NCBI RefSeq assembly: GCF_964355755.1
Contig: NC_092672.1
Span: forward strand, 11,904,001-11,968,000
DNA: 64,000 nt
From: Antedon mediterranea
Lineage: Eukaryota; Animalia; Echinodermata
Direction of reading: 5' to 3'
Positions within the stretch are counted from its first letter, which is position 1. Every line of letters begins with the position of its first letter. A program made the translations under genes and the position numbers. The notes beneath the pieces are model-generated. The model had not been told where the DNA came from, ran no database searches, and saw nothing but the letters and a program-made list of their open reading frames with translations. Below are positions 11,488 through 56,328 of the stretch, piece after piece.

Positions 11488-12017
11488 CTAAGCATTATAT
11501 TCTAACTTTTCAGCAGGAACAGTCATGTTATTCTCCTTTAAAAATGCAATAAATGATTGCAAGTTATCCTCCCTTAGAATCCCCCTTTGTTCAAGATCTA
11601 ATATCACAGTCCATTGGTTGTTACTTTGTTTTTTTAGAACACTTTTCAAACGGATGAGATCTCTTGTATTTTCTTTCGAAAGTGCGTCACCAAACTGAAT
11701 TAGGTGTTGTCGATATGTTGAGAAGGATGTGATACACTGGTTGGTTTTATCAAATGTCTCCTTTAACAGTTTGTTGACCTCCAAAACACCATTGGTACTA
11801 GTGACATTAATTGCGTCAATAAGAACTTTCACGTTGGTAGTGGTAACATTGCCAGATCGTTTCAATAAGTTGAAGAAATCTATGCAGTCAGCATTCTGTA
11901 GATCATTGTAAGGTGTTATCAGATCTTTGCATAACACCTTCAGTTTATCAAGAGAGCCATGTTCATCATACCAGCTCGAAACGTTTACCACGATTTTTTC
12001 AAACTCTTCAGATGATC
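11488..12017 (-). CDS. Terminal exon: two tandem death effector domain-like units
   Basis: Patterns FEKIVVNVS...LDKLKVLCKDLI...DFFNLLKRSGNVTTTNVKVL and FSTYRQHLIQFGDALSKEN...ILDLEQRGILREDNLQSF match the DED consensus (YRxLLxxIxxxLxxxD...FxxLExxGxIxxDNL). Confidence 0.8.
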
Positions 12018-15000
12018 CTGCAGTAAGGCATTGTAGAAAGAAAAGAATATTGAATAACATTGTACTTATCATTATAAACAAATACACTTTTGTTATAAAC
12101 AAACGAATAAAGGTATAGTCAAAGAAACACACATTACAATTTTTTTACTTATGCCCGTCTTTTAAATAGCGTAGACAATGTCAGTAGGCCAAGTGCGTTT
12201 ACTATTAGGCCTACTGTATACGGTTTTCTGTATTTATTTTGCAAACCTAAAGTGAATGACTCAATGAACCAATTGAATAAATCTGTGATTAGGATACATT
12301 TATCACAGTTTCTAAAGTGTTAACACATTTTCAAAGTGTGTTCAAATATAAAAGTTTTAGTAAGCTTCCACCAGTATGGATTACTGATACGGAATCTATA
12401 TGATAAAAATACATTTTCAGCGCAATATGTTCAACTTTAATTCTTTTATGAAATGATATGCCACAAATCATGATGAGAATCCTACACAAGTGTTTGTGTG
12501 ACGCAGATTGTTAGGACAGGCTTCCATTGAACTACCCAAAAGTGGGAATCATTAAAGATAAAGATAACTTCACATCACATTTAAAGAGGGTAAATTATAT
12601 GGTATTCAAACGTTAAAATGACCTTGTGGCAATACCATTATTTAAAATATAAAGCTACCTCTATAGTGCAGTGTTGCTGGCTCTACACAACTTCTTCCTG
12701 AAAATGAAAAAGATAATTACGATAATGATTGATAGAAACTGTTTTACTGCTCTTATTTGTTTGGGTTTTCCTACTTCTAACAGTTTCAAAAGTTGTGTTG
12801 GCATCACTATTGATAATCTAGTTTTTAAATTGTAGGGTACAGTAATGGTATTTCTAGGGCTGGTATGTGTAATGCATTTTAACAGATAGTTAATTTATCA
12901 AGACTTTACTCAAATCTTGGAAGAAAGAAGAAAACATACAATAACATAGTTCTTCATAACTTTCGAAAACAAGTTATGTTTTAAAAACACTCATTCATTT
13001 TTAAAAGACTTATGTATGGTCAGATGATAACGTATAGTTCAATATTTCTAATACATGTATTTAATAATAGTGGTTGGTACAGTATGTGAGATAGTACAAT
13101 ATGTGTATAATAATGATCATAGTAAGTAATTATTTGTGTTAGGTTTCATGAATAGATTGCACGTAAAAGTTGAATAATGTTTTCATTATTTATACAGATA
13201 TCATTCCAATAGTAAAAGTGTGAAACTGTGTAATCAACATACATACTTGTTATTTCTGTTGTTGAAGATATGCATGTTTCAAATGTCTTTTCTCTTTCTC
13301 TTTCGGTGACAGCAGTAATTTGTTCAGCTGTAAAAAAAACAATTCATTTGTAAAAAAGCAACATAATAGTTATTGTTTTGAATTCCTTTCCAACCTTCTA
13401 GAATGCTTATAATAAATTCAAAAAATAAGTGTAAACAATACTTTTCAGTTACTTTAGAGAACATAAAATAAAGCAATAAATGTTCAGACAAACGTACCGG
13501 GCAAAAACAGACGCTTGATATGAGCAGTATCCATAGCGTCATTCTTTCCACATTTAACCGAATTCTCGTTTAAACACCTTTTGAGATTGTGTAAGTGATG
13601 TTTATTTGGATCACAAACAGTGCATAATACACGAAGTTTGTAACCGATACCCTCGTATATAGTGCAGACAGTTTTTAGTTGTTTCTTCAAGTAGCTTAGT
13701 ACCTAAAATGAGACGGACATTTTCTCTCAAGATATAATTTATTATTACATGTCATTATAATTATTTAATTTGTTAATTTTGTGTTAATTACCTCCATGCA
13801 GACACTTGGTTGTAGTTCTGGTTTAAATGTCAACGCTATGTTAGTGTCATCAATATCTGTAGTAGGACTCCAGATTCTTAGGCGATATATTTCAAGCTGA
13901 AACATGTATACATGTAAGCATGATCGGGCAATTACGAATTTCAGAATCACCTTTTGTTAAATTGAATACAAAATACAACATTAAGTTCACAACTTTAAAG
14001 TAGGGCTAACATTAACGGACACATTCGATGAGGCAGGTGTTTATTAAAGTAATCCAGATTTTTTGATATTTCCTTTTGCATAATTCATAATTGAAAAATG
14101 TAAATTTTCAAAAGCATGTCAATAGAGATACCGGTACTGAATGTATATACCTTCAATGCATATGGCTTTTCTTGTGTATTGTTAATATTGACGGCACCTA
14201 GACTGACTCTATGTTCTTTAAAGTTGAAGTCACTACGATTCCGATATACTTGTGGATCATCACTGTCGGCTTTCGTCATCAATTCAAGAAATGCAACCAC
14301 TAAAGTGTGATACACAGCATCAGGGAGAAAGTCGGTCGGAGTAAGGTAAATTGATACCATTTGCACATTATCATCTTTGGTGACTTCCAGAGGCTCTTTG
14401 TCAACTTTCATCCGACACGGAACCAAGAACACTCGGTTACTATCTTCAACCCCCTGTTATGAACATAGTTACATAATTTAAAAGACAAACTAATTTTTTT
14501 TATTCTTAAAATATTAAAATAATGTACTAGTTTTAATATGTACAGTTTTTTCTTCTTATGTTTATTTTCATACAATAATGATGTCCATAATAATGATACT
14601 ATCATTTTTATTCCTAAAAATAAAAAACTAATTTAAACATAAAATGATATCAGTCTATTGAATGTAACATATGGAACAACTTCCGGACAACATTACAGAT
14701 TCATCTCCAAAACATGCGTTTCTTTCTTAAAAGATTATTTATTTAACTATAACTGTTATGTTAAAAAATGTGTGGAGAAACAGTACAGTTAATGTTTAGC
14801 TTTGTCTTTGTAAGATTATCTGTACGCTACTTTGTACTTCCATATACAATTTTTAACCTGGTTTAATTTGTGTTATAATTAAACTGTTGATAATTGTGAA
14901 TCAAAAAGTACTTACCGCCATTTCAAAAAGTAACCGAAACTCCTTCATTACTTCTATAAACACTTCAATGTGGCCTTCTTCCTGTTGCCATAGATAACGT

Positions 15001-18000
15001 AGTAACTTCTCCTCGAGAATCCCTTTCTCACTAAGCTTATTCCATAACTGCATCAGTTGCTTCTGTGTAAAAATCGTCTTAGCTGTATCACTAACCACAC
15101 GGTAATAATTATGTTTGACGAATCAATGAAATTAAGTCAAGAACAACAATGCAATTCCAGCCTACCTTTTTAATAGTCGGTTTAACTACTGTGATCACCT
15201 TTGTCAACATCTGAATCATTATGTGAATATTTGTTATCACTGTGTTTTCTAATTTCTTGTTAGTATTTGAATACATGATTGCTCCAATGTCGTTTAGGTA
15301 CGTTAATGCATGTAATAGCCCATCTGTTGAAATTCCACATTCAATGCAAATCCCAGAAGCCTAATAACAAATTGAGATTATTTAAAGAATTTGCGTACTC
15401 TCTATTAAATCATAGATATATTATAGATCTTACTATAGTTTATTATAAATCTCTATGATTAAATGTAGACGATTGTTTTTAGAAATAAAAATAATAAATT
15501 GGGTAAACTTGTCTTTCACATTGTTGTAAAACTTCGTTCTAGTCAGGGAAAGAGAAGTTTTGACCAAATTAAAAAGATTTGAATTGATGTAAAATATATA
15601 AAGAAACCTAAAATTATCAGTGTCTTTAAACTTACTCTATTCTGTCTGATGTCAACTTATTTTATTAGCTGCATTGTGGGAGTTGTTTCAATAGGTGTAA
15701 AACATGACCTGGGTAATAATATGTACAGCGCTTAGAGCATTAAAAAAATGTGGCTCTTTATAAAGATCATCATTATCATTATTATCGTCGTCGTCGTCGA
15801 CACCGTCGTCATCGTCATTTCTAATAACGTTCTACCATTTCTGCAAAATTACAAAATTCTTCTAAAACGGGCAAGCCACAAAGATATACATTGTCCGATA
15901 TATAGAATAGACCTACAGTATATTTTAAAAGCAATAATAGTCAATACATGATTATTATCTGTAAAAAATAAAAACCATACCTCAATGAAGGTAATGCACA
16001 GTCTGGTTTTTCCAATTCCGTGCAACCTTTCTTGCAAATCAAGCCACTTTAATGGAACGGTTCTCACCATGTCCTTCATATAACGACCAACGTTTCTTCT
16101 TAGTTGTTTTATACCTTCATGTGATTTTACAGTGTTATCGACCATGTACATCTCACGATCTACATGATCGGCATATGGCATTCCTTCCATTGTTCTAAAC
16201 ATTAACTGAAACTTATCCTCCACTTCCTTTAATAAAAATATTGTTTCATTACAAGCTTAAACAACACAACACGAATTTAACTTTTATTACAAAATGTTCA
16301 TCCACATTCTGATTTGAATACATCTAGACCGTATACTATTAATTACCATTTTTTCCATCCTACCGTCGCAACATTGCAAAATTATTTAATATAAATGCAG
16401 AACCAATATTACCTTCATCCAAATTTTTGATTTTGACTTTTTCAATTTGTCCATATGTGTAGCAACCAAACAGATAGGAGGTGACTGGATAATCTTGCCA
16501 ACAATTTCAATGGGACTTCCTGGACCATGTCGTTTCACAGTATGTTCATAAATGGACCTTATCCAGAACATATTCATTTCCAAATTGGTCATTCCTAGTG
16601 TACTCTAATATCACAAATAAAATGCAATCTTACAAAGTAAGCTAAAATATTCTCAATAACAAAGATATGCATATTTAATAAAGTGTATTCGAGCAAAATA
16701 AGTAGGTAGTCAACTTACTGTGGTTGAATCTCGCGGATTAGCTGGTTCATCCAAGTTATCACACGCATTAAATGCTACACAGTAGGATACTCTATTTGTG
16801 AGGAAAAACTAAACAAAATACAATTGATAATAATAACTTTTTTTTATACTCCACGACATTTATTAGGGATGTGTTAATTGATACATGCAATCATACTTTG
16901 GTGAACATGTTATACCACAACACAATGTCGTACTGTCACTATGAGCAAATCTCTTTATTTTTTAATAATCATTTAACATATAAAACAAAAACTATGAACA
17001 AAAGAAAAAATACATAAATCAAATAAAATTGTAAAATATAATTTAAAGGTCTGTATAATAGAATAGATACGTAAACAAGCAAATCAATGCCCTTTTTTTA
17101 AACATGCACCAATAAATTTACTTTTTAATTTTTAAGACATTTTTAAGTAATAGCAAATAACAAAATAGGAACATACCCTATGCGTTATGTAGTAGTCCAG
17201 TTGACCTGCGTAGTCCCATATAGTAGTTACGTCACTTGGAATACTTTCTGAATCATCACTTCTTCTTTTTACAAATTTCCTAATCAGTTTCATCGCCCAA
17301 CTATCTTTCTGTCTTCGCTTTTTTATTTTAGCAACAACTTTTCTTTGAATGGAGTCGGGAATTGTCAGATTTTCTTTTAGTTGACTCTCTAAATTCAAAT
17401 AATGACTACAAATCAATGGGGTGTGTGTACATTAGATATGGATATGGATAGATGGACTGGTCTGATATGTTGTGAGTAGACATAATGAATGTTAATGTGG
17501 ATAAAAAAGTGTATACAATAAATAAATACATCAGTCAGGATGATTAAAGAATTGAACGAGCAGTGAATAAACACATTTATTTGTTTGCAACAAGAAAAGA
17601 AATCTCACTCTTTCCTGGTTGGACTAACTTTTTGAGAACAAAATTTTCCAGAATGTTTCATACTAATGGTACAATGCCATACATATTATTTTATCAAATA
17701 TAAAGAAAACCAAATATTGAGTCCAACCCTTACTTGCCGATTCCACTGCCAATGACGTGTAATCAGACTCTCTGGAATCAGATGTAGAAGCCTCACCTAA
17801 AAAAAGTTCGTTGAAAGATGTTCTTTCTTTCATCTTTGATGTAATTTCTTCCACTACAGCCTCTTCAAATATTCTCTGGGTTTGCTTGAATCTGGAGTTT
17901 TCTGTCGGCGAAAATGTATAACTAAAAATGATTATTTGTGTCGTGTTGCACTCATAACGAATAAAATGGTTATATTATTATATACTAGAGCAGTGAAATA

Positions 18001-21000
18001 TCACTTATATGCCTGTATAAACTCCACAGTTTAACAAGTACTACTTTTTTTTTTTTTTTTTTTTTTTTTAATTATTATTTTTTTCTTTATATTAATAATA
18101 ATAAAACAATAATATAAACAACACTCCTATGAAGTTATAGTGTGATAATTTTGTGTTTCTTTCAGTATCAGCATGTATAATACACTACATTAATTTATTA
18201 TTTACATTAAGTTGGTTTATTTACTTTTTTTAAGAAAAGAAATTACTATTTTAGATCTTGTCATGCAATTAATTTGTTGTTTATTAATTCGTGCGAGGAC
18301 TTGTTAGGCCTATTACTATTAGTAAAGTGATTATATGCGAAACGACCACACTTTACTTATGCAAAATGATCGTCAAAAATATTTAAAAATTAATCAAACC
18401 TTCCACTGAAGACACAGAGTCAGAAGATATAGAACATTCGAAATCAGATATTGAATATGTTGAAACTGCACCTTGTAAATGGAATTTGGTTTCAGTTGAC
18501 GTTTGTTTTTCCATCTTTGCTGTGATGTGTTCATGCGTTTTCTGGGATGTTCCTGCAATTCATTATAATATATTTTTGATACAATATATAGAATGTCTAA
18601 CATTTCACTTTTATGTATGTTTCTAAACTGTATGAGTGCATCTTAACTTGATTATGATCACATATACAGTTTGTTTAGAATATTAAAAATACCCTTGTAA
18701 TAGAAATTGTAGTAGATAGTCAGGCAGCATTTGTCACTATATTAACTTTACTTCATATATTTAGCCAAGTTTGATTTTTCACTTTTAAGTTATCAAGGAC
18801 ATCACAAGAAACAACTTCCAACTTGTTGTCCAATTTCTAAACGCGTTTTTCATTCGCTGGGGGCGCTTTTTCAAAATGGCCGCCTATGCTATCAAGTACT
18901 TATATTTCGGCAACCACTAATCGTAGAGACTTGGTTTTAGTCTTAAAATGTTCGTAAGGTACATACTTCTATTCACTATAATGGAACATTTTGCCCTAAA
19001 ATGACCGGAAATACTATTTCTGACCATTTGACCTTTGACCTGATCTTATCATATCTCAATAACTATTGGTCAGAAAGAGTTGACATTTATCCCAAATTGT
19101 TCAGAAAATACATGTTTCTAATTGCTTTAATGCAAAGGTTTGTTTCAAGATGGCCGGAAAAACCATATCTGACCTTTGACCATAACCTGTGTGATATCTA
19201 CAACATGTTGGTTATAGATAACATTTTTCGACAGATTGCTCAGAACATCCATATTTGTAACACATTATTGATTTTTCAATTATTGATGCTTTAAATCATT
19301 CACTTAAGCTTGGAAATTAAAGTTTTAAAATAAATAAAAGCCACTCATTATCTCCATACATAATCCTAGCCTGTGATTGGCTGAAAGTTCAAGCAGATTA
19401 GATTTCATGAGGTTAAATGGTAAGTGTTTTTTAAACCGATTTAAACAGTGTTTGCTGGGAAATCATACTTATTATTAGTACATAGGCCTATACATTTACT
19501 TGTATAATAATGTACCTATGCTGATATAAATGTTGTACAGAGAGGCCTTAGTTAAATAGTTATAAACTATAGTTCCAGCCTAGGCCTTGTCGCTAACACC
19601 TAGCAAACAATGCTAGCCTGGTGAGATCCCCGTGGAACTCAGTGACAAGCCAACTCAGTGCCTGGCATGGTAACCTCCGATGATGTCAGTCAAACGATTG
19701 AAAAGCGAGACCAATTAGGAAAAGAAGCATTGGATAAATTTGTGACTTCACGAATGGTTGAAAAAACCGTAACATTTTGAGACCCTCAAAAGAAAAACAA
19801 CTTCTCTTATTTCAAGCATGTAGGAGCAGTGGTGAAAACCAAAATTAAAGGTCAACTAGTTTCAATTAAGCAAGAGAGAAAGCTGCTGTCTAGATTGTTA
19901 GTTGTGGCGAAGAGCAGGCCAGAGTTCGCTCTAAAGGATGTCATAGGCAACTATGAGTTCAATAGCACTCCACCATCAAATTTCCATCCAGATGGAAGAA
20001 TGATAATGCTTTCTGGAAAATCCAAGGTATTGCAGTCAATAACAGAACTCCCTCTACCAGATAATGTCAGCAGGCCTGTACAGAAAGATGATAAAAAGCA
20101 GCATCAATCCTAATTATTGCTGGCATGTGTGTCGTCAATATGGTAAAAAAGGTGTCTGATAAGTTCAATACTTCTGACTTTGCATCTGAATTTGTTAACC
20201 TGATTGTTGGTATGAGCAAACCATATGATGAAGTTCGTCTTTTATTTGATCAATATCTATCAGGATCTTTAAAAGAATCTACACGAGATAAGAGAACACA
20301 GAAAACAACTACCATTCACTACCATGTCAATGACAACACTGAGATTAAGAACATTAAGACATTTTTATCGCACAAAGAGACCAAAGCTGAACTTACAAAA
20401 TATCTGTCAGAGAAGATACCTAATCTCTTCAAGAACAACACGAAGAAGGTCCTAGTAACACATCACACGTCCATGATGGCAAACTGCAATCTCTCAGAAG
20501 TTATCATGATGCCAGAGATGACACACGGACAACACACATTGGAAGAAGGGGACCAACTGGTCTTATTGTATGCCTTTGATTGTATGAACAAAGACCCAAG
20601 TGCCAATGTTGACATATTTTCTGTAGATACTGATGTCTTTATCCTTTTAACAGGAAGCTATCCTCTACTTCCTCCAATGACCACATTTTGTAGGAAAAGA
20701 GGGGAAAAAATACCTATATGGGAATGCTATTACCGACTTTGAAAACAAATATCAGCAGCACTGATTGGATGGTACGCATTTAAAGGTACAGATAACACAG
20801 GTACATTTGCTTGAAAAGGAGTGTCCGCCCATTTCAAAGCACTTTTGAAATGTGACGATGAAATACTAGATGCATATGCTGTATATGGACTGACCTCTGA
20901 AATACCAAATTGGATTTTCAGGCAAATGGAAAGATATGTTTGCATACTATACAGTACTTCTAAGATCAAGGCAGATTATGTCACAGACTTGAGATGGATG

Positions 21001-24000
21001 TTATTTGCACAGAAAGGCAAGGAAGGACAACAATTACCTCCAACCATGGGAACTCTTAGATCACATGTGGAAAGAGCATACTACATGTCTATTGTATGGA
21101 ATTCATCATGCAAGCCAACTCCATCTATTCCACCAGCAACTGACTACTCCTGGCAACTAGAAGATGGTCACTTGAAGCCGGTATTTTGCAACAATCCACA
21201 AGCACCAAAAGCTCTTCTAGAAATTCGTCGATGTACCTCCAATGGTTCATGTTCAACAAATCGCTGTAGTTGTAAGAAAAACAACTTGCTCTGTACTGAT
21301 GCATGTGAGTGTGGTGATGGATGTAAGAATACAAAGGACTGGAATGTAGAGCTAGTAGACAATATCGATGAACTTTATTGACTGGAGAGGGTAATCTGAC
21401 TATATTCAATATTTATGGTATCTATTTATTTATTATAACAGTTCCATTGGTGATTTGAAAAATTGATTTTGGAACAAGGGATATCATCAACAAAACCACA
21501 AGTACCGGTAAAAGTTATAAACAATACTAGACAAATCTATAGTCTCTCAGTTGTGGATATTACATGCATTAGGGCAAGAGGTCAGATATGGCATTTCTGT
21601 TTGCTTTAAAACAAAACATTTAATTACAGTAAATATAAAAAGGCATACTGCGAACAATTTGAAACAAATTTTAAGTCTGTGTGACCATTAGTTACCGAGA
21701 TATGATGATAGAAGGTCAAAGGTCAAATGGTCAGAAATGGCATTTTCAGTCATTTCTGGTCAAAATATTGGATTAGAGTAAATAGAAATATGTACCTTGC
21801 AAACATTTTAAGATTAAAACCAAGTCTCTACGATTAGTGGTTGCCGAGATATAAGTACTTGATAGCATAAGCGGCCATTTTGAAAAAGTGCCCCCAGCGA
21901 ATGAAAAACGCGTTTAGAATTTGGACAACAAGTTGGAAGTTGTTCGTTGTGATGTCCTTGATCACTTAAAAGTGAAAAATCAAACTTGGCTAAATATATG
22001 AAGTAAAATACAAATGCTGCCTGACTAAGATATTCATCATACCTATTTTTACTGGATCCACAGAAGAGATTGCTGATGATTCCAGTTGGGAATCAGATTT
22101 AGATGTTGACATATCTGAACTTCCTTCACCATCATCCATTTCTTCCTTTATTAACTGTGTTGCAAGTTTTTCTGCAAGTGCATCTTCTCGTATTTTCTTG
22201 TTGAGCTCCATAACTGTTTAAAAAAAAGGTGAAATAAGATTGTACGATAAACATCATAGAGATAAATAAAAATACTAAAATTACAGAAATGAGATACATC
22301 ATCATATCATCATCATCACCTGTAAAATACAATATGTAGGTAATTTATGTAATTATAGACCCAAATGCATTTTTAAGTATTTGATAAAAATATTATTTCC
22401 AGTGTACCTTACCGGTACGTTTTTACCTTTATTATGATACTAATTAATCTCTATACACAAATTGGCCAAAGCAGGCAATTATGCGTTTGTTGAAGGAAGA
22501 AGAAAGAGAGAGTTTCTCTCTTTTGTGAGGACAGCTCACTTTGAACGAACAGTTAATGTGTTATTTGGTATGGTTGAATTCTTCTTTTCAAACTTACCGT
22601 CGATATCTTCCTTCTTCCACTTGTCACACTCTTTTCCAATTGCTTGAAACAATGTCGTTGTGATAGCAATACCATCAGTAGATGGTTCGTTGGATTTAAA
22701 TCTATAATAATGAATAATGAACTCTAAAAGGTCGGATTTAATGAAAGGAGAATGTATCCAATAGTTCATCTTAAAATATTGATATATTTAAAATAAAAAC
22801 GAAGTGAAGATCACAAGTAAATAAGCATATGCTTCACACCTCTTGGGGATATTTAAAACAAACTGAAACTTTCAGCAGCAGAATTTGCATAAACATCGTC
22901 GTCACCATCACCGTCTATGTCACCATCATCGTCATTATCATCATAATTGCCATTATAATCATCATCATTTTTATTATTCGAAAAGGAATGAAAACCCGTT
23001 ATTCAAAGACGAAACTTCATGTATCAACTATTTAAAATAAGAACCTCAATAATGCCAATTTTTGTATTTTATTGAATAATTAAATTAAAATACTCAGCAC
23101 CAAACTTATTATAAACAAGAAATCCAAACAACTCGTTAAATGTTGTCAATTGCATTAGAGATACTTATGAAAAAAAGATAAAGTTTTTTAAATGGTTCAA
23201 AGAACAAAAGATTGATTTTAATATATTTTTTGATAAGGAATGTTATGCCATGACTATTATAGAGAACATGAATACAGGATTAGAAATAAATGAGAACTTA
23301 ATCTACTGTAATGGTAAAAACACCATTCAAATTGTATTATAAATACTTTATATTGATGAAGATCATGTATTTTTTATTGGTGCATCTTATAAAATAACTT
23401 TGTTTTTGTGTTACCTTTGTCCAAGCATGGCCTTTACACAGCTAGTTTTTCCAGCACCTTCTTTCCCGAGAAACATACATCTTGAATTTACAACTGCAAT
23501 CTCACCATTTTCAAGTTCATTTTGAAATGATCTAATTGCGCTCTTACCTCTAGCTAATATTTCAACTGGAACTAAATTGCGATTAAAATAAATGTAAAAT
23601 ATACAAAAACAAATGTACACATACAAATATTTTACATTTAAGAATCAATTCAGAGCCAGAGTTTTAAAACTGTCATTATGACAGCTCATCTTCTTCACAT
23701 TCATACAGTTCAAAGGTTCAGTACAGTGTTCAATATGTGTCATTAGTAATACACAGTTTAATATTCATGATGCAAAAACTCAAGAAAAGTGTATTAATAC
23801 AAACTTACTGTCAAGTAACTTCAATATCTTGTTTTTCTTTTCTTTGGAGATATCATCATTATCCTTCAAAACAGATGCTGGTGTTTGACCTCGCTATACA
23901 AAAAATGTATTAAAGTATTATCCACTGTTACTTTACTAATCTATAGATATACACATTTAAGTAAGGGAAACAATCAGTAAATCGTCCCTTACTTCTATAA

Positions 24001-27000
24001 TTTTTACTCGATGGTATATAAAGTTGGTTCGTACTTTCGGTACTGATTTTAACCACCTTATGTAACTCTGTTTACTAATTAAATTGAGTTAGATAATTAT
24101 TTATTGACGATTAAAGCAAATTTACGATTTGCCCCGAATAGGTTTTTTTCACAAATTGTTTTACATTATATAAACACATATACAAATAAACTTTATTACT
24201 GACAGTTGCTTCTCAACGTTTGTATTAATTAATAATGTAATTACAAAAAAAAAATATAAACGTCGTAGTGTGTATCGTTACATGTACTGTACTGTACATA
24301 CTTCAATCGACTATGACGGTGACAGTTTCAACAAAGTATTAAATCGCAATGTTTTAATGTATTTAGTGATATATTATTTGTAAAACATGAAAACAATCCT
24401 CTTTTCCATCCCTCAACCCTAATGTTACATACACAACACAAATTAAGTTTGTTTAAACTTGACTCAAACAATTGGTCTCATTTTGTGACAAGTTTCTCTT
24501 TCGGAAGTAATTCACAGGGTGCTAATTTTAGTTGAGTACATAAATCACCGTTTTTATTTATTCGTTATTGTAAATAAATGACATTGTCCTGTGGTACGTA
24601 CATTTGAAATCGCCAGTTTTTAGTCGCGTGGACGCAATAGTTCACTAGCCTATGTCGGTCGGTCGGTCTGTCTGTCTGTCGGTCCGGTATCACTATGCGT
24701 TTTATCGCTTTTCTGTACTTTTTGAACTGTTTTGATGTTTTTTCTGAGAGCACTCGACTTATGGCTGTTGGCCTTGTTTAACGCTGAAATTACTATGTAT
24801 TCGAGAAGCATCTGTGGACAACTTAGATGCGAGCGAAGCGAGTAAACTAGTAATTTACATAATCCGGATTGTAATAAACACATGCATAAGTTAATAGTGT
24901 GCACACGTTAATATGACACTATCTGAGTACCTTTGCACTAACAAACAAAATAGTAACTGCTCTACCATTTAATGTTTATTGTGATTGAATACACTTAGTC
25001 TTTAAAAATCTCTCAAAAGCCACATTTTGAATTTTTAATTTTCTAAATTGTTCTGTCTATGTAAAGCGCATTAAGGCTTTCAGCATAATGCGCAATATCA
25101 AGCACCAGTTATTATTATTATTATTAAAAATGCTATTAAAAAAAATATTATAAAAGAATAGTCGATACTGTATTAAATGTAGGCCTACATGTTAATTATC
25201 GCATCTATGAGAATTTACCACCACTAGCAGTAACTCGTGCTCCGCATGGTCTTCGTCGGCTTTAACATATGGTTATATTATACTAATTCGCATGGGATGA
25301 GTAAGTATCATATAAGCCCACTCTTCCCTCATAAAAAGCCATGGATGTTGTTATACACCAAGTATTCCTTCACTTTTAAGTAACTTCGAGCTACAAAATG
25401 AAAGCCTAATATTGGATATGGGACTTTACGAAAATGGACAAATTGTACTGTGTGAATAAGATGATGCGCGCAATAACATAACGAAAGTATAAAATGGTGA
25501 ACTATATTATTTTGGGTGTTTTTCGTGGTGTATTAATTATTTGATACATTGAAATAAATCAAAAAGTGAACAAAAATCGAACGGAATAGAAAGTGCATGA
25601 GATTAAAACATTTTAATGAAGTATTGGAATAAATCAACACAAAAAGTAGTAGCGCTCGGGGTGTATTTTTTATTTTTTTACTTTTTTTTTGTTCATTTAC
25701 ACTTTTTTTATTTCATGGTTTATTATATTTTGATTTTTTGTGTGTGTGAGTGAGGTTTCGTAACCCTTTTGCTAGTTTTGCAATTAGATTATAATATTGA
25801 GGTCTAGGTTTGATTTTTAGCTTTAAGCATGTCGTGGATTCGAACTCGAACGTACTAAACATGGGTACCAATGGTCACGGCGATTTCTCACTGAGCCATA
25901 CCGTGATTTACAAAAATCATGCTGTTCAAACAATAGGTGTAATTAACGACGCGATTATTCGATACGGTTGACTAAAGACTGGTGTTTTGGCGGCCTGGCA
26001 TGGTATTTGTAGATCCGGCCATGGCGGTACACAAAGAGGAGGATGCGTAGTTTATACAGTGACGTAACACGGTCCCTGGGACGTAAAATGACTCCTATTT
26101 TTGCCGTTTTAAGTGTTTATCCTTAAAATTCAGGAAAGTGACATAGCCTATCGAGTGCGGCCCATCAATAAACATCAGTGTGCCAAATGTGAGCACGCAC
26201 CGTTCAGTGGTTTTAGAAGAGATACATAAACATAATAAACAAAATAGTAGCATTAATATAGATGCTAACATACGGTAATGGCTTTAAACATTTGGCGCCT
26301 TTTCTGATATTATTTGGCTCCATCAAGACAATGATTACTGTGTATTAGTTAACAAAAGATTTGTAATATTTTAAGTTGATAGAAACTCCTAATTAAAATA
26401 AGAGTATACCTTGGATATAGGCGTAATGGTTTGCTTAATAAGCACAATTTAAAAATGCAAATGCAATGTTGCTGCATTAATTGACTGTACCTTGTTTCTT
26501 GCTTTAAGTGATGCTCCATGGGCTATGAGACTGTTCACTATTTCTATATTACCACTCCTGCCAGTCCTAACGTGTTCATGTAGCGGTGTGTTTCCCACCT
26601 GGAAAGCAGAAAGTTGTATGTATAATAATATACATTTTACACTTTAGATACTAGAACTAAGGTTTAAACAAATTTAATATGTATTCGTTCTGCTCCTACA
26701 ATTATAACAAGCAATTAACTACTACATCTAATGTATATTTTGCTTCTCGTGGGCTACTCGTCTTTCAGTAGTAACTTCGATGATCATCCCTGCCAAATCG
26801 CCAGGACTTGTCTGGCGTGTGTAGGCGACTATACAAGTACAATTATTTAACCTCTGGTGGCAACGAAATGCGTCTGCCAGGTGGACAGCCGGGAATGAGT
26901 CCAACGGATGTAAAGCATATATGTCTATCGGTTATAGATTGAAAGTTAGATGATAAATCTGAATTAGGGTAATAAATTGACTTCAGTAATGTAAACGGGG

Positions 27001-30000
27001 TCCCATCGTTTTATTACTTTTTATGAAATCATACACATAAGCGCCATTATTCGTTCGGCATCATAGTCCGCAAGGTCTATGGTCAAGAAATTGTTAAGTA
27101 AATGGAGTATGTTGTTAATTGTCTACGATAAACCACAGTATAACAGTAACTGTAAATAATACAACTAGTTGATTTCAATTGGGACGTGGAGAGGTGTTAG
27201 CAATGGACATTATTTTGAAAGTATTGGTATTAACGTCTTGTTAAATGCGTGTCTGTGTAGCGGTGTGTTTCCATCCTGGAAAGAAGAAAGTTAGATTAAA
27301 CTTGACGCATTTTTTTAAAGAATACAGGTATTATTATATTACATATTTTCCTTTTCTATAATCATTTATTAGTCCATTGAGGGTGACTGTAAATTATAAT
27401 ATTAAGACCTGGTATTAAGAAAATAATATAACTTTCTGATTTTAATTATTATAATACAGAATGCTTAGTACTGAACACATTTTAAAAGTATTAATTTAGC
27501 GTCTTGTTCGATCTAAAACGTTACAGCTACACGATATTTAATATATTTGAAATTATATTTTTGCTTTGATAATAACTATACATTTATCCAATGAAAACAC
27601 ATTAAACGAACCTAGGGTTTGCTTATAACGGGAGATAATGTAAATTAACTTGTAGTGTTAACTAATACGAATAATTACGTTAATGATTTTTAAATCAATT
27701 TAAAAGAGTAATTTACATTGTTTGTTGCTGTGATTGATGCTCCGTTGGCTATGAGACTGTTCACTGTCTCTACATTACCACGGCCAAGCCGAAAGTGTCT
27801 ATGTAGCGGTGTGTCTCCATTCTGGAAAGAAGAAAGTTAGATTAAACTTGACGCATTTTTTTTAAGAATACAAGTATTATTATATTACATATTTATCCTT
27901 TTCTACATACATTTTGTAATTATTTAATAGTGACTGTAAATTATAATAAGGTAATAAGAAAATAATAAGAAAATAATACAATTTGCTGAGTTTAATTATT
28001 ATAATACAGATGGGTTAGCATTGAACACATTTTAAGAAAATAATAATACAACTTGTACTATACCCTGGAAAGAAGAAAGTTAGATTAAACTTGACACATT
28101 TTTTTTAAAGAATGCAGGTAGTATTATATTACATATTTATCCTTTTCTATATTTCATTTTGTAGTTTATTGAGAGTGACTGTATTATAAAGAAGACATGG
28201 TTTTAAGAAAATGCTACAGCTACACGATTTTCAATATAATTGTATTTTGCTTTGATAACAACTATACATTTTCCAATGAAAAACACATTAAACGAATCTA
28301 GGGTTTGCCACTGATCACCAACTGGGCCCTCTGGGAGACCAGTCTTTGACTGAAGAGGTTACCCAGTATAAATATAAATTTCAATTCAAATTCAAAATTC
28401 ATATAACGGGAGATAATGTAAATTCACTTGTAGTGTTAACTAATTACGAATAATTACGTTAATGATTTTTAAATCACTGTAAAAGAGTAATTTACATTGT
28501 TTGTTGCTGTGATTAATGCTCCGTGAGCTATGAGACTGTTCACTATTTCTACGTTACCATCGCCAAACTTAACGTGTTCATGTAGTGGTGTATTTCCCTC
28601 CTGGAAAGAAGAAAGTTAGATTAAACTTGACGCATTTTTTTAAAGATTTTAATTACTATAATACAGAAGGGTTAGCAATGAACACATGTTAAAAGTATTG
28701 ATTTAGCGTCTTGTTCAATCTAAAATGCTACAGCTACACTATTTTTAATATATTTTAAATTGTATTTTTGCTTTGATAATAACTATACAATGTTTCCAAT
28801 GAAAAACACATTAAACGAATCTAGGGTTTGTTTATAACGGGAGATAATGTAAATTAACTTGTAGTGTTAACTAATACGAATAATTACGTTATTGATTTTT
28901 AAATCATTGTAAAAGAGTAATTTACATTGTTTGTTGCTGTGATTAATGCTCCATGGGCTATGAGACTGTTCACTATCTCTACATTACCACAGCCATACCT
29001 AACGTGTCCATGTAGCGGTGTGTTTCCATCCTGGAAAAAAGAAAGTTAGTATTATTATATTACATATTTATCCTTTTCTACATTCATTTTGTAATTCATT
29101 GAGTAAGAGTGAATGTAAACACCCAATTCTGTAGCTGTGGAAGTGTGGAAGACTGTCGACACTCTACCAGAGACCTATCTGACTATATTAAGTACTGTAC
29201 CTTTAATACACGATATCGCTGTCATTAATACAGTCAGATAGGTCTCTGGTAGACTGTCGACAGTCTTCCACACTGAGTGTACTAACAGCTACAGAATCGG
29301 GTGATATAAATTATAAAGAAATACCATGGTATTAAGAAAATAATAACTAACTGATTTCAATTAAGAAATGCAGAGGATTTTGCAATGAACATCATTTTGA
29401 AAGTATTGATTTTAGCGTCTTGTTAAATGATGTTTAAAATAATTTTAAATTATAATTATCTTACTTTGATAACAAAAATATTACTTGTGTTTCACAATGA
29501 AAAACAAATTATACAAATACAGGGTTGGTTTATACGTTAGCTCATTTATATTAACTATTGAGTGGGTTCAAGTCCCGTCACATGTCAGGATTTTTTCTAA
29601 GGACCAAATTACTTCACTCCCAAAGACTTGTAATAAGACTTTGTTTATGTAGAGCATCTTGTGTATGTTTGTCTTGTGAACCTCTGAGGGTCCCTAATGA
29701 TCAGCAATAGCTGGATGGATCACCCTCATTAAATATGGTGTTAAAAAAAATTAATACGGACAATAACGTTAATAATATTAATTCATTAATTTAGTAATTA
29801 ACATTCATTTTGTAATTCATTAATAGTGACTGTAAACTGTAAAGAAAACACCTGATAGTAAGAAAATAATACAACTAGCTGATTTTAACTTAGACGTGCA
29901 GATGTGTTACCAATGAACATTTAAAAGCTGATTTTAACTTAGACGTGCAGAAGTGTTTAGCAATGAACATTTAAAAGCAGATTTTAACTTTGAACATGTA

Positions 30001-36000: not shown

Positions 36001-39000
36001 ATGAGATCAGTATTTGTAGTAGACATAAGGACAATATATTTTAATTTAGATGGATTATTTGTGTAAGAGGAAAACATATACTTAGTTCTACTATCTGAAT
36101 AAACTAAAGGGAATTTATCTTCAATTGATTGTAGAGAGCATAATTTTCATAGTCTATCATTTCTATTAGGCCTAATACGATTCCATCTTCCTTTTTCTAG
36201 TTATAATATTCTTAGTCTTAGTTTAGTCACAATGTGTCTTTGTTTGTAATTTTAATTAAGTATTCTTCCGTTCCAACATAATTTATATTGATTGCTTGTG
36301 AAATATTGGAGCTTATAGAGAGTGTAACCTATTATCTCATAGAATTGTGTCGTTCAATAAGCCTCGCCTTTGTTTAAATTTTGAAATAAAAAATATTGTT
36401 GACCTGTTGAGCATGCCATGTTGCCAAATCCATTTATAGGCCTACATAATAAGTTTTACATCATTCACCCAAATCACTCATTTTGTTGCGCTTTTCTATG
36501 TTGAAAATCGTAAAATTGTTTAATGATTTTTTCATAATCTATTTGGCTTACTCTCAGCCACTAACGAATTCAATTAATGATACTTTGAGTTTGGATAGGG
36601 AATTCTCGATATTCTCCTCTCACTGCATCACTTGGTGCAAAATTTTCTATTCCTAAAAGATATTTTTATTCTAAAATCAAAATAATATAATCCAAGTGGT
36701 ATGAAGACATTGTTCATCTGCTGGAAAACTACAAGTCAGTCGATGCTACAAACCACAAGGGTTCGGAGAAGTCAAGCAGGCAGAAATGCATTTTATCTCA
36801 GATGCTAGTGAAGTAGTATGTGGTCAATGCACGTATTTAAGATTGATGCCCTCATGATAATATTTCTTCTTTTTCGATATCAAGTGTATGTAGCTAACCG
36901 GGTATACAACAAATCAACGACGTACCTTCCATAGAAAACATCTTCTAATCCGAGTGATATAGTCAGTAGAGCCGTGCGTGCTAACAGTAAGCAATTGATT
37001 TCACATACCGGATAGGTGAGTAGTTCTACACTTCTTCACCAGTAGGTAGTTCTTAACAAACAAAGGCGGTTGGCCAAAATCGATGACTAATCGCGTATAA
37101 GGTTGTTGCTTCAGAACTAAAATATATTCGCTCATTCCACACTAATGTTGACAAAGTTGCTTCAGAATGGTTTTATGACAGATAAAATGAACTATAAATC
37201 ACATTAAATGTATTGAATGTTCATTCGCCTTAGAGGAACCAACACGTAGTAAGGCATACTTTTTAGATATGCCTATCAAAGGTAAACTTAACAGTGATAT
37301 AAGACAACAAAACACATGCAGTAATTTAATATGAAAAGATTGGTGTAAATATTGCGAGGAGCCATGTACCGGCAGTATGTGTAACTGAGTTAATGATTAT
37401 GTAATTGTTGTTGAAGATATGCTCATCGGGAATAATTTGCATAAAATACCATGTTAGCCTACGTATATTAGAAATCTCACTAGCTAGTGTAGTTAGTTGA
37501 GACGATGCTATCGTCAGCTGCACCATTTTAAATATATTTTAAATTGTAGTTTTGCTTTGATAATAAATGATTTTAATTATTATAATACAGAAGGGTTAGC
37601 AATGAACACATTTTAAAAATACTAATTTAGGCTCTTGTTCAATCTAAAACGCTACAGCTACACAATTTTAATATATTTTAAATTGTATTTTTCCTTTGAT
37701 AATAACTATACACTTTTCCAAAGAAAAACACATTAAACAAATCTAGGATTTGCTTATAACGGGAGATAATTCAAATAATTACGCTATGGATTTTTAAATA
37801 ATTGTATAAGAGTAATTTACATTGTTTGTTGCTGTGACTGAGGCTCCGTTGGCTATGAGACTGTTGACTATCTTTACATTACTCCTGCCAGACTCAACGT
37901 GTTCATGTAGCGGTGTGTTTCCATACTGGAAAGAAGAAAGTTAGTATTATTATATTTCATATTTTTCTTTTCTACATTCATTTTCTAATTCATTAAGAGG
38001 GAATGTAAATTAAATAGAAATACCTGGTATTAAGAAAATAATGACTAACTGATTTCAATTAAGACATGCAGATTATTTAGCATTGATCATTTTAAAAGTA
38101 TTGATTTTAGCATCTTGTTTAATCGAAAATTCGACAGCTGTACATGATGTTTAAATATCGTAAATTATATGGTGATGGTTAATAACTTTAAATAATATAA
38201 TTTATTAAATTAATAAACATATTCCTACGCCTAGACATCTCGTTTAGATTCAAGTAAACTTTCATGAATACTGAATTTGTAGATCTGTATGTATTTACCA
38301 AACCGCCTTCAAAACATAATTGCAAATTCCAACAATACACTCTACGGTGAATTCAATAAATATTTTGTTATCTATATATAAATTTACGTAAGGGCAAAAT
38401 TCGGTAAATCGCGCCTTACTTCTAGAATTTTTACTCGATGGTATATAAAGTTGGTTCATACTTTCGGTACTGATTTTAACCACCTGATGTAACCCTGTTT
38501 ACTAATTAAATTGAGTTAGATAATTAGTTATTGACGATTAAAACGAATTTAGGTTCAACGATTTGCCCCAAATAGGGGTGTTTTCCGATCGGGGTATACA
38601 CTGTCTAATGGATGTCCAACTTGAAAAATACCCGCACACAATAATACGAGGACGCTTCGCATTTTCCTATCTCCTCCTACGAAAATTGTTTTTAATAGCT
38701 GAAAACCGGTTGAACTGCTCGAGTACAGCATCATAATGTTGAAGACAGGCCGATTTTCTTTAAAAAATACTATTTTGATAGATTTAATTGACGTTTTTAC
38801 AAATGTATTGATTTGCGATGAATGGAACATTCCAATCTCTCAGTCTGCCAGTTTGGTTTAACACAAGTAGGTAAATTTATGAGCCCTTGGAAAATAAACT
38901 TACAATACTTTGACAATACAGTACTGCAAATACCTATTAACCATTTTTGGTCGTCATTTGAATCGAACATTTCTTACTGTGAATACTGTTAGATGTACAA

Positions 39001-42000: not shown

Positions 42001-42376
42001 CTCCCTTGAGTTTACCGTAAACATGGTTATGATTTATATCATATTCACATTCAAATAAATATAGTTTCTATACCTTATCTACGGAGTTCACAAGATGTGG
42101 ATATGTTTTACATATTTCTTCAATTTCTTCCAAATTTCCATATCTTACAGCTCTTTGCAATACGTTTCTGAAAAAAAAAGAAGATAAAAATAAATCATGG
42201 CTAGAATACTCGGTCGATGATGTTAATATGTTTATTTGTCATGTTTCTAAACAATGATAAATACAATTTTTCTTTGAACTCTTTATAATATTAAAAATTT
42301 GTTGGATATAAAATGTAAAGCTTACTTCTCCATTTAAAAAATGCAGTCAGTTTGAAGAAATAACTTACTCATCCAT
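11488..42376 (-). CDS. Multi-exon gene (25 coding exons, 3813 nt CDS, ~1270 aa): ankyrin repeat - Roc GTPase - COR - tandem DED protein (ROCO family, no kinase)
   Basis: Manual splicing with GT..AG introns and matching phases gives one open frame from ATG 42376 to TAG 11488. Motifs: GxTPLH ankyrin repeats, P-loop GKEGAGKT, switch I STDGI, IWDYAGQ, LVATHMD, COR motifs VPLKWL and ALTYLNDIGAI, and two DED-like helical bundles. The start codon and any further 5' exons are not proven. Confidence 0.85.
12659..12697 (-). CDS. Linker micro-exon (RSCVEPATLHYR)
   Basis: 39 nt, phase 1-1, strong acceptor ttttcattttcag, gtagct donor. Confidence 0.6.
13247..13327 (-). CDS. Linker exon (EQITAVTEREREKTFETCISSTTEIT)
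   Basis: 81 nt, phase 1-1, ttttacag/gtatgt. Confidence 0.7.
13498..13702 (-). CDS. Exon: COR end with Cys/His cluster (CTVC..HHLH..C..C)
   Basis: 205 nt, phase 0 to 1, canonical sites. Confidence 0.82.
13792..13896 (-). CDS. Exon: COR-B (LEIYRLR...PSVCME)
   Basis: 105 nt, phase 0-0, canonical sites. Confidence 0.8.
14151..14453 (-). CDS. Exon: COR-B (FLVPC...FLPDAVYHTLVV)
   Basis: 303 nt, phase 0-0; COR xxVP and P...xxLV motifs. Confidence 0.88.
14916..15062 (-). CDS. Exon: COR (WNKLSEKGILEEKLLRYLW...MKEFRLL)
   Basis: 147 nt, phase 0-0; GIL...LW...MxxFxL COR motif. Confidence 0.88.
15166..15360 (-). CDS. Exon: COR-A (ECGI...ALTYLNDIGAIMY...LENTVI)
   Basis: 195 nt, phase 0-0; LxxLxDxGxI COR motif; not in the ORF track. 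Confidence 0.88.
15981..16226 (-). CDS. Exon: Roc end/COR start (VDNT...GIKQLR...VPLKWL)
   Basis: 246 nt, phase 0-0; PxxW COR-entry motif. Confidence 0.88.
16413..16604 (-). CDS. Exon: Roc G4 region (FWIRSI...PPICLVATHMD)
   Basis: WxxSI and PxxLVxTHxD Roc motifs; 192 nt, phase 0-0. Confidence 0.88.
16719..16808 (-). CDS. Exon: Roc (FFLTNRVSYCVAFNACDNLDEP)
   Basis: Continues the H-xFLT motif; 90 nt, phase 0-0. Confidence 0.85.
17177..17388 (-). CDS. Exon: Roc switch II (IWDYAGQLDYYITH)
   Basis: WDxAGQ Roc motif; phase 1 to 0. Confidence 0.9.
17734..17901 (-). CDS. Exon: Roc insert 3 (NSRFKQTQRIFEEAVVEEI...AVESA)
   Basis: 168 nt, phase 1-1, gtaagg donor. Confidence 0.78.
18400..18552 (-). 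CDS. Exon: Roc insert 2, Ser/Thr-rich (TSQKTHEHITAK...SDSVSSVE)
   Basis: 153 nt, phase 1-1, ttgcag acceptor, gtttga donor; the frame differs from the ORF-track call. Confidence 0.7.
18717..22027 (+). mobile_element. Academ-type (AcademX-like) DNA transposon, internally deleted and degenerate
   Basis: Termini TAGTCAGGCAGCATTTGT...ACAAATGCTGCCTGACTA, imperfect TIRs of roughly 450-500 bp, 3-bp TSD AGA (18714-16 and 22028-30); internal ORF fragments carry XPG/PIN-like motifs and a C-terminal Cys cluster. Confidence 0.85.
19640..21381 (+). pseudogene. Disrupted Academ protein C-terminal half (XPG/FEN-like nuclease plus Cys-rich zinc finger)
   Basis: ORFs 19829-20113, 20125-20742 and 20821-21381 are separated by stops/frameshifts; motifs EEGDQ..SVDTDVF, GTDNTG.F, LPPT..H..RA.Y...W, CSTNRCSCKKNNLLCTDACEC. 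Confidence 0.8.
22043..22213 (-). CDS. Exon: Roc insert 1 (MELNKKIREDALAEKL...SSVDPVKI)
   Basis: 171 nt, phase 1-1, open frame, canonical splice sites. Confidence 0.8.
22598..22701 (-). CDS. Exon: Roc switch I (FKSNEPSTDGIAI)
   Basis: STxGI Roc motif; phase 2 to 1; gtaagt donor. Confidence 0.88.
23415..23571 (-). CDS. Exon: start of Roc domain with P-loop (PVEILARG...MFLGKEGAGKTSCVKAMLGQ)
   Basis: Walker A GxxxxGKT preceded by a PxEIxARG motif typical of invertebrate Roc domains; phase 1 to 2. Confidence 0.9.
23809..23893 (-). CDS. Exon: C-terminal capping ankyrin repeat/linker (RGQTPASVLKDNDDISKEKKNKILKLLD)
   Basis: 85 nt, phase 0 to 1, GQTP motif, gtaagt donor. Confidence 0.8.
23940..24850 (+). 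mobile_element. Non-autonomous Helitron, copy 1, carrying a nested repeat at about 24617-24780
   Basis: a|TCTATA start; ends GCGAGCGAAGCGAG..CTAG|t; long homology to 38371-39662. Confidence 0.75.
25223..26263 (+). mobile_element. Helitron/Helentron-like non-autonomous element containing a tRNA-like segment
   Basis: ACTAG terminus with adjacent imperfect hairpin, ATTAATATAGAT at the other end, tRNA B-box-like segment (ggattcgaac) at about 25835; boundaries approximate. Confidence 0.5.
26491..26598 (-). CDS. Ankyrin cassette exon (VGNTPLHEHVRTGRSGNIEIVNSLIAHGASLKARNK)
   Basis: 108 nt, phase 0-0, ttccag acceptor, gtacag donor. Confidence 0.85.
27247..27275 (-). pseudogene. Truncated ankyrin cassette exon (DGNTPLHRH...), 3' part and donor deleted
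   Basis: Intact paralogous acceptor region followed by about 29 nt of exon that runs into paralogous intron sequence and reaches TAA about 12 codons later. Confidence 0.75.
27717..27821 (-). CDS. Ankyrin cassette exon (NGDTPLHRHFRLGRGNVETVNSLIANGASITATNN)
   Basis: 105 nt, phase 0-0, intact splice sites. Confidence 0.85.
28300..28400 (+). mobile_element. SINE 3' fragment inserted in an ankyrin-cassette intron
   Basis: Absent from paralogous introns (gggtttgcttataacggg); ends in an (AATTC)n-like tail. Confidence 0.6.
28496..28600 (-). CDS. Ankyrin cassette exon (EGNTPLHEHVKFGDGNVEIVNSLIAHGALITATNN)
   Basis: 105 nt, phase 0-0, intact splice sites. Confidence 0.85.
28926..29030 (-). CDS. Ankyrin cassette exon (DGNTPLHGHVRYGCGNVEIVNSLIAHGALITATNN)
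   Basis: 105 nt, phase 0-0, intact splice sites. Confidence 0.85.
29120..29303. mobile_element. Foldback MITE (CACCC...GGGTG)
   Basis: Near-perfect inverted arms of about 70 bp (agtgtggaagactgtcgaca/ctaccagagacctatctgact and their reverse complements); absent from paralogous introns. Confidence 0.75.
29535..29750 (+). mobile_element. tRNA-derived SINE
   Basis: tagctca A-box remnant, B-box gggttcaagtccc, A-rich tail. Confidence 0.6.
31630..31800 (+). mobile_element. Old BEL/Pao pol fragment
   Basis: RRTILGSICSIYDPFSFAAP...DEPL...W is homologous to TRRGILSVVASVYDPLGLITP in the intact BEL in this window. Confidence 0.7.
34970..35260 (+). mobile_element. tRNA-derived SINE with Deu-type core, nested in the P element
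   Basis: B-box gggttcgagg; core taaaccgtaggtcc...taaagaaccc...ttcgaaaaagagtaggggg..ccccggtg; (TAAA)n tail. Confidence 0.7.
35716..35870. mobile_element. 155-bp non-autonomous element (AcademH-like) inserted in the P element right TIR
   Basis: TAGAC...GACTA termini, a hairpin at each end (agactt..aagtct; gtctgg..ccagac), 9-bp TSD CATCTTTAG. Confidence 0.7.
36690..36970 (+). mobile_element. Old BEL/Pao RNase H fragment (duplicated at about 41190-41500)
   Basis: Translates to RCYKPQGFGEV...MHFISDAS...CTYLR. Confidence 0.7.
37821..37925 (-). CDS. Ankyrin cassette exon (YGNTPLHEHVESGRSNVKIVNSLIANGASVTATNN)
   Basis: 105 nt, phase 0-0, ttccag acceptor, gtaaat donor, GxTPLH...LIxxGA ankyrin consensus. 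Confidence 0.85.
38371..39662 (+). mobile_element. Non-autonomous Helitron, copy 2
   Basis: a|TC start, 3' hairpin GATGGTACGC..GCGTACCATC then CTAG|t, no TSD; the empty paralogous site is visible at about 31050-31070. Confidence 0.85.
42074..42167 (-). CDS. Exon: N-terminal capping ankyrin repeat (NVLQRAVRYGNLEEIEEICKTYPHLVNSVDK)
   Basis: Poly-T acceptor and gtata donor; phase 2 to 0; ankyrin-like LxxAVxxGNLE motif. Confidence 0.8.
42369..42376 (-). CDS. Exon 1 coding part (ATG GAT GA) of a 22-nt exon, 42369-42390
   Basis: Acceptor tttttcag and donor gtaagt; the phase-2 end fits the next exon (MDENVLQ). The frame upstream of the ATG is open, so coding could start further 5'. Confidence 0.6.
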
Positions 42377-56305: not shown

Positions 56306-56328
56306 TCACAAAGATTTAAAACTTAAAA

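Follow-up and report, generated by a model that had tools for sequence, protein, structure and literature searches.

A 64,000-nucleotide stretch of the Antedon mediterranea genome (assembly GCF_964355755.1, contig NC_092672.1, positions 11,904,001 to 11,968,000), referred to here as the window, carries on its minus strand a gene in which an ankyrin repeat array, a Roc GTPase, a COR domain and two DED-like domains follow each other in a single spliced frame. By every testable feature the product is a Roco protein, and neither an NLR nor a DAPK1. It represents an expanded, module-exchanging crinoid family of kinase-less Roco proteins, and on balance we consider it likely that it serves as an immune or danger sensor inside the cell, which would signal through DED partners.

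In a six-frame translation of the window, the minus strand between 42.4 and 11.5 kb showed a P-loop as well as pieces that resemble ankyrin repeats, COR and DEDs. They are joined by a chain of 25 exons running from an ATG at 42376 to a stop at 11488 (3813 nt, 1270 aa), with zero internal stops and with GT-AG borders at all 24 introns, and chance joining of open reading frames was rejected. Both ends, and the domain order, are exactly those given in a preliminary description of the locus made from its sequence. A database search with the last exon led to the A. mediterranea protein XP_071943867.1 (1110 aa, here P0001), at 100% identity. Exons 7-25 were fixed by their splice-site fit to P0001, which they match without a single difference from residue 15 of that protein onwards, whereas the placement of exons 1-6 relied on splice signals and phase. 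The RefSeq model itself begins in exon 6, out of frame, and lacks the cap and four of the ankyrin repeats; it is probably a truncated annotation. No stop interrupts the frame in the 14 nt that precede the ATG, so that a longer N-terminus is possible, and the first AATAAA past exon 25 lies at about 11269.

Splicing was further assessed with contigs from three (X1, X2 and X4) of five sequence runs, none of which is recorded as RNA, the type of X1 being a guess. X1 behaves partly like cDNA. Three of its eight displayed pieces end, with overhangs, no more than 2 nt from predicted splice sites (exons 20, 22 and 25), and four of its six displayed loose ends on an ankyrin exon read as exon-exon junctions, three from ankyrin to ankyrin and one, resembling paralog P0011, from ankyrin to cap. 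A 12-mer from one of these junctions is present a single time in the spliced frame, and the gene's strand of the window does not contain it. None of the 12 loose ends displayed for X2 and X4 read as a junction. The 15 joints listed, out of 116, for 11000-30500 include no splice joint, splicing being read from piece ends and loose ends. What these contigs demonstrate is tandem splicing of ankyrin exons in the family, not a full transcript of this gene.

The GTPase motifs are intact. Roc holds G1 (GKEGAGKTS, aa 274), switch I (STDG, aa 298), G3 (WDYAGQ, aa 547) and G4 (ATHMD, aa 638), all four of which had been noticed before, and on P0001 it scores 41.2 bits in Pfam (cut-off 27). COR-A follows directly, with 55.6 bits (cut-off 35.3). 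The structure model of P0001, with a mean predicted local distance difference test score (pLDDT) of 63, matches the Chlorobium (C. tepidum) Roco 6hlu (E 4e-14) as well as LRRK1/2. Absent from the preliminary description is a long low-complexity insert, rich in Ser, Lys and Glu, which splits Roc and in which pLDDT is mostly below 50. The G1-G3 spacing is 273 aa, compared to 104-107 in five paralogs, and is the joint largest among 74 rows (range 91-273). A nucleotide-dependent dimer cycle and GTP hydrolysis are described for other Roco proteins in the passages cited from PMC4104024. The protein is kinase-less, as had been proposed: a Pfam scan of P0001 found no kinase domain, and tblastn with 190 proteins, two of which have kinase domains, gave no match at E<1e-4 in the window outside the 25 exons. 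The idea of a DAPK1 fragment with its kinase upstream in the window was rejected.

The putative sensor is built in a regular manner. Each ankyrin repeat corresponds to one exon in phase 0 at both ends, and all five such exons score above the Pfam Ank cut-off, each over the whole 33-position profile; the cap-like repeat of exon 2 has no Pfam Ank match. In a PDB sequence search with the full-length alignment, DARPins dominated the matches. The exons were duplicated along with flanking intron sequence, and a search of introns 2 and 3 for extra ankyrin exons found none, a truncated copy at 27275 being the sole extra. A 1.4-kb segment, 86% alike in its two copies, flanks exon 3 on both sides (35896-37264 and 40400-41744), and may be either a repeat or the trace of a local duplication.

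When the five repeats are compared, the framework is nearly constant and replacements concentrate at the tip of the hairpin and where helix 1 ends. Six DARPin-type surface codons, in their usual numbering, were named before the count, and the other 29 codons served as the comparison set. The proportion of nonsynonymous differences (pN) was 0.37 at the surface codons versus 0.11 elsewhere (exact p=0.004), and 0.30 versus 0.10 (p=0.019) among the four closest repeats, with the older fifth dropped. The passages cited from PMC8229355 place DARPin-type binding positions on the concave face. Genome-wide contigs of the three runs vary at the end of helix 1 as well: on exon 5, codons 8 and 11-14 of 35 hold 25 of the 37 listed variant letters and all eight multi-allelic sites; variants close to contig ends are unlisted, which may hide codons 1-3. 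Repeat diversity in the paralog P0015 is highest at the same helix-1 end (P0006, P0014 and P0018 have too few repeats for such a profile). Amino-acid changes cluster, in short, on the predicted concave face of the ankyrin array.

At the other end of the protein, exon 25 is predicted to encode both of the DED-like domains that the preliminary description had proposed. The profile and structure checks were favourable on all but one count: ankyrin, Roc and COR exceed their Pfam cut-offs and a death fold is predicted, whereas Pfam DED, matched over two stretches, stays just below its cut-off (32.6 versus 35.9). A profile of 12 family sequences has its best match in the caspase-8 prodomain, with both DEDs covered (E 9e-6). 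The AlphaFold model of the tandem has a pLDDT of 89.6 and a predicted template modelling (TM) score of 0.86, and all 23 rows listed by Foldseek are tandem DEDs of caspase-8, cFLIP or vFLIP (TM 0.54-0.72, root-mean-square deviation mostly 4.4-5.8). The tail is predicted by these models to fold like the tandem DEDs of caspase-8 and cFLIP, as two packed DEDs of the six-helix type. The best Atlas cluster for the DED is mostly echinoderm, with a DED in 51% of its members, and the second bears the automatic name v-FLIP-like.

The details of the DED surfaces are less favourable. In the alignment, the buried FL-type site of DED1 is a hydrophobic V-L, V and L each being found in 53 of 75 family pairs. 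The FL motif of DED2 was judged by sequence alignment only; the site aligned to F122 of caspase-8 is Arg (R-L), and Phe is found there in one of the 75 family DED pairs. Neither is an RxDL motif visible in the DED alignment, and no crinoid DED-caspase is present among the 190 proteins compared, three of which have a caspase motif, all of them Roc-COR-caspase proteins of other phyla. These points count against our preferred reading. Extension of human caspase-8 chains requires the exposed F122/L123 of DED2, according to the passages cited from PMC3477315, and the earlier suggestion of caspase-8-type filament nucleation is weakened by the Arg at this site.

A count of paralogs, which had been suggested with the preliminary description, gave at least 24 named Antedon proteins with COR, 16 of them on one 38.96-Mb contig; it is a lower bound from protein databases and includes partial models. 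Tandem DEDs follow COR in 21 of the 24. A Roc-COR search returned 27 proteins (11 from Antedon, 15 from Anneissia and one from a mussel). A COR tree of 35 rows unites the 25 from crinoids in one clade against 10 other animals (support 97/95), and ten Antedon rows in a subclade (100/100); long branches meet among the outer rows, and P0164, which has no full COR, was left out. P0006 and P0015, from another contig, are each annotated as one protein with cap, 4 and 8 repeats respectively, Roc, COR and DED. The tails among close relatives comprise two distant DED types, a death domain (DD), HEPN, DED-ZU5-DED and a second Roc-COR, and those on other related Roc-COR proteins comprise DD, HEPN, DD-TIR, CARD, caspase and trypsin. 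Five DED pairs of the type found in the window's gene precede NACHT-LRR in the Anneissia NLR P0054. Its gene model is unchecked, as are those of three further crinoid proteins with other combinations: two Roc-COR units in tandem (P0014), TAZ-KIX before Roc-COR-DED-DED (P0059) and four DED pairs (P0035).

Compared to P0003, P0004, P0012 and P0013, most Roc exons of the window's gene are 82-98% identical, the late COR exons 19-22 41-59% and the DED exon 85-93%, which makes the gene itself a mosaic. Similarly, P0039 and P0040 share 94% identity in DED and 27% in COR. Approximately unbiased (AU) tests on trees of 15 rows, taken from 34 rows for COR and from 31 for DED, reject matching histories of COR and DED (p 0.001, 6e-5, 3e-11 and 2e-93), and a COR tree constrained to keep the DED group together is rejected at p-AU 0.001 under two models, including a mixture model. 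Since the COR and tandem-DED trees disagree, modules have been exchanged between family members.

The preliminary description likened the protein to NLRs in its division into sensor, switch and effector. This reading gains support from the variation of the ankyrin face, the lineage expansion, the exchanged tails, the caspase and TIR relatives and the DED of the crinoid NLR. Membership in the NLR family was rejected, because the Pfam scan of P0001 gave no NACHT or NB-ARC match; at most, the protein may work in an NLR-like manner. In the mechanism that we propose, the ankyrin groove would bind a ligand that changes, which could be a protein of microbes or one of the host in altered form. Binding would shift the nucleotide and dimer state of Roc-COR, as in other Roco proteins, and this change would cluster or expose the tandem DED. 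The absence of the DED2 FL motif favours docking over chain extension of the caspase-8 type: most likely, the tandem DED would dock a partner via the DED1 pocket or other surfaces, and would not itself extend such a chain. The protein may accept the FL motif of its partner, or crinoid DEDs may use another interface. Candidate partners are a caspase-8-like protein or a crinoid multi-DED adaptor, and the output would be cell death or inflammatory signalling.

Could the tandem DED restrain rather than transmit a signal? As a FLIP-like regulator, it would cap or divert DED chains begun by NLRs or death receptors, restraining death or steering towards NF-kB. The absent DED2 FL motif suits such a role, caspase-8 FL mutants being recruited yet chain-stopping in the passages cited from PMC3477315, as do cFLIP and vFLIP among the structural matches and the name of the second Atlas cluster. 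The lack of the FL motif, however, extends to the entire DED family of crinoids, the NLR P0054 among them, which argues for a lineage-specific interface and not a decoy, and relatives place activating outputs (caspase, TIR, HEPN) at the same position, so we regard this regulator as rather unlikely. Another possibility is a non-immune scaffold, in membrane traffic, development or arm regeneration, like LRRK or the Dictyostelium Roco proteins, in which case the expansion would reflect neutral tandem duplication and gene conversion. Characterised Roco proteins hold many non-immune roles (passages of PMC4104024 and PMC11378527), and gene conversion in a tandem cluster would yield the same discordance of COR and DED. 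Overall pN (0.16) is also below the proportion of synonymous differences (pS, 0.18) among the ankyrin repeats. Further points count against our preferred reading: the AU groups were chosen after the identities had been seen, gene models of tandem-cluster paralogs can be chimeric, the selection test uses five non-independent repeats, and there is hardly any variation at three of the six surface codons named beforehand, while the unnamed codons 8 and 14 vary. Divergence of exons versus introns as a proof of selection was set aside as mixed, since the contrast holds in three of six pairs and downstream only (downstream introns differ by about 4% in three pairs and by 25-29% in the other three, upstream introns by 6-37%). 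Against a scaffold, replacements do concentrate on the ankyrin binding face, all recognised tails are death, immune or nuclease modules, and a kinase is absent; we find this explanation quite improbable.

A different objection concerns the gene product. RefSeq annotates a single ankyrin repeat, none of the X1 contigs with junctions spans from ankyrin to DED, these contigs are 80-99% alike and may derive from paralogs, and X1 also contains intronic and transposon sequence. The expressed product might be shorter than the 25-exon model, with upstream ankyrin exons skipped, alternative or decaying, as in the one-repeat RefSeq model. P0001 and P0011 are both annotated with one repeat and odd N-termini, intron 3 measures 8.8 kb, the array holds a truncated exon copy, and the four upstream donors are GTAAAT. 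Exons 1-6 nevertheless retain frame, phase and splice sites, the annotations of P0006 and P0015 unite cap, repeats, Roc, COR and DED, and X1 contains head-to-tail junctions of ankyrin exons, so that we give a shorter product only a small chance. The full-length Roco sensor remains the reading that we favour, and its parts are located in Table 1.

Table 1. Positions of the exons and encoded domains in the window.
Feature	Positions	Strand	Basis or remarks
Exon 1, coding part	42369..42376	-	ATG 42376; an acceptor 14 nt upstream points to another exon before it
Exon 2, ankyrin N-cap-like repeat	42074..42167	-	By-eye likeness to N-termini of paralogs P0006, P0014, P0015
Exon 3, ankyrin repeat 1	37821..37925	-	105 nt, phase 0-0; splice model and Pfam Ank
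Exon 4, ankyrin repeat 2	28926..29030	-	105 nt, phase 0-0; splice model and Pfam Ank
Exon 5, ankyrin repeat 3	28496..28600	-	105 nt, phase 0-0; splice model and Pfam Ank
Exon 6, ankyrin repeat 4	27717..27821	-	105 nt, phase 0-0; splice model and Pfam Ank
Truncated ankyrin exon copy	27248..27275	-	Acceptor and ~9 codons, then unrelated sequence; excluded from model
Exon 7, ankyrin repeat 5	26491..26598	-	108 nt, phase 0-0; splice model and Pfam Ank
Exon 8, ankyrin C-cap and linker	23809..23893	-	Splice model
Exon 9, start of Roc with G1/P-loop	23415..23571	-	G1 aa 274-282, ~23467-23441
Exon 10, switch I STDG (aa 298-301)	22598..22701	-	Splice model and motif
Exons 11-13, low-complexity insert within Roc	17734..22213	-	22213-22043, 18552-18400, 17901-17734
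Exons 14-16, latter half of Roc, including G3 (aa 547) and G4 (aa 638)	16413..17388	-	17388-17177, 16808-16719, 16604-16413
Exons 17-22, end of Roc and COR (~aa 704-1050)	13498..16226	-	16226-15981, 15360-15166, 15062-14916, 14453-14151, 13896-13792, 13702-13498
Exons 23-24, flexible linker	12659..13327	-	13327-13247, 12697-12659
Exon 25, both DEDs (predicted) and stop	11488..12017	-	Pfam, profile, structure model

Further elements occur both inside and outside the gene. Intron 11 contains an element of about 3.3 kb (18717-22027), with inverted ends of about 480 bp that are 83% alike and broken open reading frames without Pfam match; one contig each from X2 and X4 joins across it, which points to an allele or paralog without the element. 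A Bel/Pao-type long terminal repeat (LTR) retrotransposon occupies 49821-57145, its coding region consisting of two long open reading frames in different frames that meet near 51900. Its 817-bp LTRs are 100% identical and it has a 5-bp target-site duplication, indicating a recent insertion. A degraded long interspersed nuclear element (59674-62802) shows endonuclease and reverse transcriptase matches in several frames. An Rfam scan of the window gave no match.

When 1.84 billion representatives were searched with a profile, 412 matches had E up to 1e-30. The best 150 contributed 138 new proteins; Pfam scans covered 59 of these, chiefly the longest, and 20 were named. The scanned relatives include Neuralized-Roc-COR-DD-TIR proteins in amphioxus, starfish and octopus, and ankyrin-Roc-COR-DD proteins in crinoids and an acorn worm. 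The Neuralized-Roc-COR-death-TIR proteins P0074, P0093 and P0116, which are of similar length, form one clade (100/96) and represent a conserved Roco, unlike the crinoid expansion. Enzyme effectors fused directly to the switch were seen in P0174 (Bcl-2-Roc-COR-caspase, from the annelid Owenia) and P0148 (Roc-COR-caspase, from the anemone Exaiptasia), and P0156 from Actinia combines NACHT-Roc-COR-trypsin; these three gene models are unchecked. In the Atlas, Roc-COR has clusters from molluscs and sponges as its neighbours, and death or CARD domains are present in some of them. The window's gene belongs, as one crinoid form, to a broad class of invertebrate Roco proteins that mostly lack a kinase.

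It is tempting to speculate, and we do so tentatively, that crinoids, and marine invertebrates more widely, may possess a second intracellular immune receptor class beside NLRs, switched by a GTPase. Its crinoid form would be a natural DARPin-like library, with COR and effector exons that recombine and with a pool of non-FL tandem DEDs in common with NLRs. If this were true, single-repeat ankyrin exons would have been duplicated and diversified on their binding face, and crinoid Roco receptors and NLRs would feed one death pathway. Should the present gene work in the way that we propose, it would show that the Roc-COR switch can stand in for the STAND ATPase of NLRs in animals, would provide a kinase-free model of input-output coupling for the LRRK2/DAPK1 switch, and would point to a large and little described receptor class in marine invertebrates. 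Roco immune-receptor proposals exist for brown algae, bacteria and Trichoplax, none of which gives a ligand or a direct test in the passages cited here. The present gene is a compact animal test case, with a readable output in its predicted tandem DED, a P-loop that is intact and can be mutated, and a variable surface whose position is mapped. The three-part logic is less new than first suggested, since both kinase-less death-fold Roco proteins and Roco immune-receptor proposals are already published; Roc-COR-TIR genes in Aplysia and anemones are mentioned in the passages cited from PMC9334734 and PMC5094078. We found no published description of a crinoid or echinoderm Ank-Roc-COR-DED family in a search whose coverage left out subscription papers and figures, and Figure 2 of PMC11378527, with about 40 animal domain combinations, may include it. 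What is new here are the phase-0 single-repeat ankyrin exons, the variation of their concave face, the size of the COR family in Antedon and the exchange of COR and DED modules.

DAPK1, a conserved single gene, combines a kinase, ankyrin-Roc-COR and one death domain. The window's gene has ankyrin-Roc-COR and a death fold in the same order, but differs from it in having no kinase and a tandem DED. With NLRs it shares an analogous three-part layout, with a variable repeat sensor, an expanded family and a death-fold effector, and even the DED type carried by a crinoid NLR, although the switch is a STAND ATPase there and a GTPase-COR here, and the domain order is reversed. The tail has the same predicted fold as the caspase-8 prodomain, and unlike caspase-8 and cFLIP the protein has neither the DED2 FL motif nor a protease domain. 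Among animal Roco families, Trichoplax adhaerens has at least 17 ROCO genes with Roc-COR flanked by repeats and CARD or death domains (Civiero et al. 2014, PMC4104024), again a lineage expansion; its repeats are TPR or LRR, and neither an ankyrin sensor nor a tandem DED nor variation of a binding face is mentioned in the passages cited. Kinase-less AP-GTPase architectures with ankyrin or DED are listed for sponges and corals, for example DED+TRADD-N+Ankyrin+AP-GTPase+COR+Death and AP-GTPase+COR+DED+TRADD-N+caspase in Amphimedon (Kaur et al. 2021, PMC8195603, supplement file 4), but among 11 rows of that table, whose entries are centred on TRADD-N, none is Ankyrin-GTPase-COR-DED-DED. The same authors predict a counter-invader role for prokaryotic LRR-AP-GTPase-COR-effector systems (passages of PMC8195603), which resemble the crinoid family in their fast-evolving N-terminal repeats, Roc-COR core, swappable C-terminal effectors and several paralogs per genome, and differ in being bacterial, with an LRR sensor and enzymatic or EAD effectors. 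Brown algal LRR-ROCO proteins, exon-shuffled candidate immune receptors (Teng et al. 2024, passages of PMC11378527), likewise have a single repeat in each exon, duplicated exons and repeats that diversify, and belong to an expanded family. Their LRR exons are 72 nt long in phase 2 and no death-fold tail follows, whereas the crinoid ankyrin exons are 105 nt long in phase 0 and lead to a predicted tandem DED.

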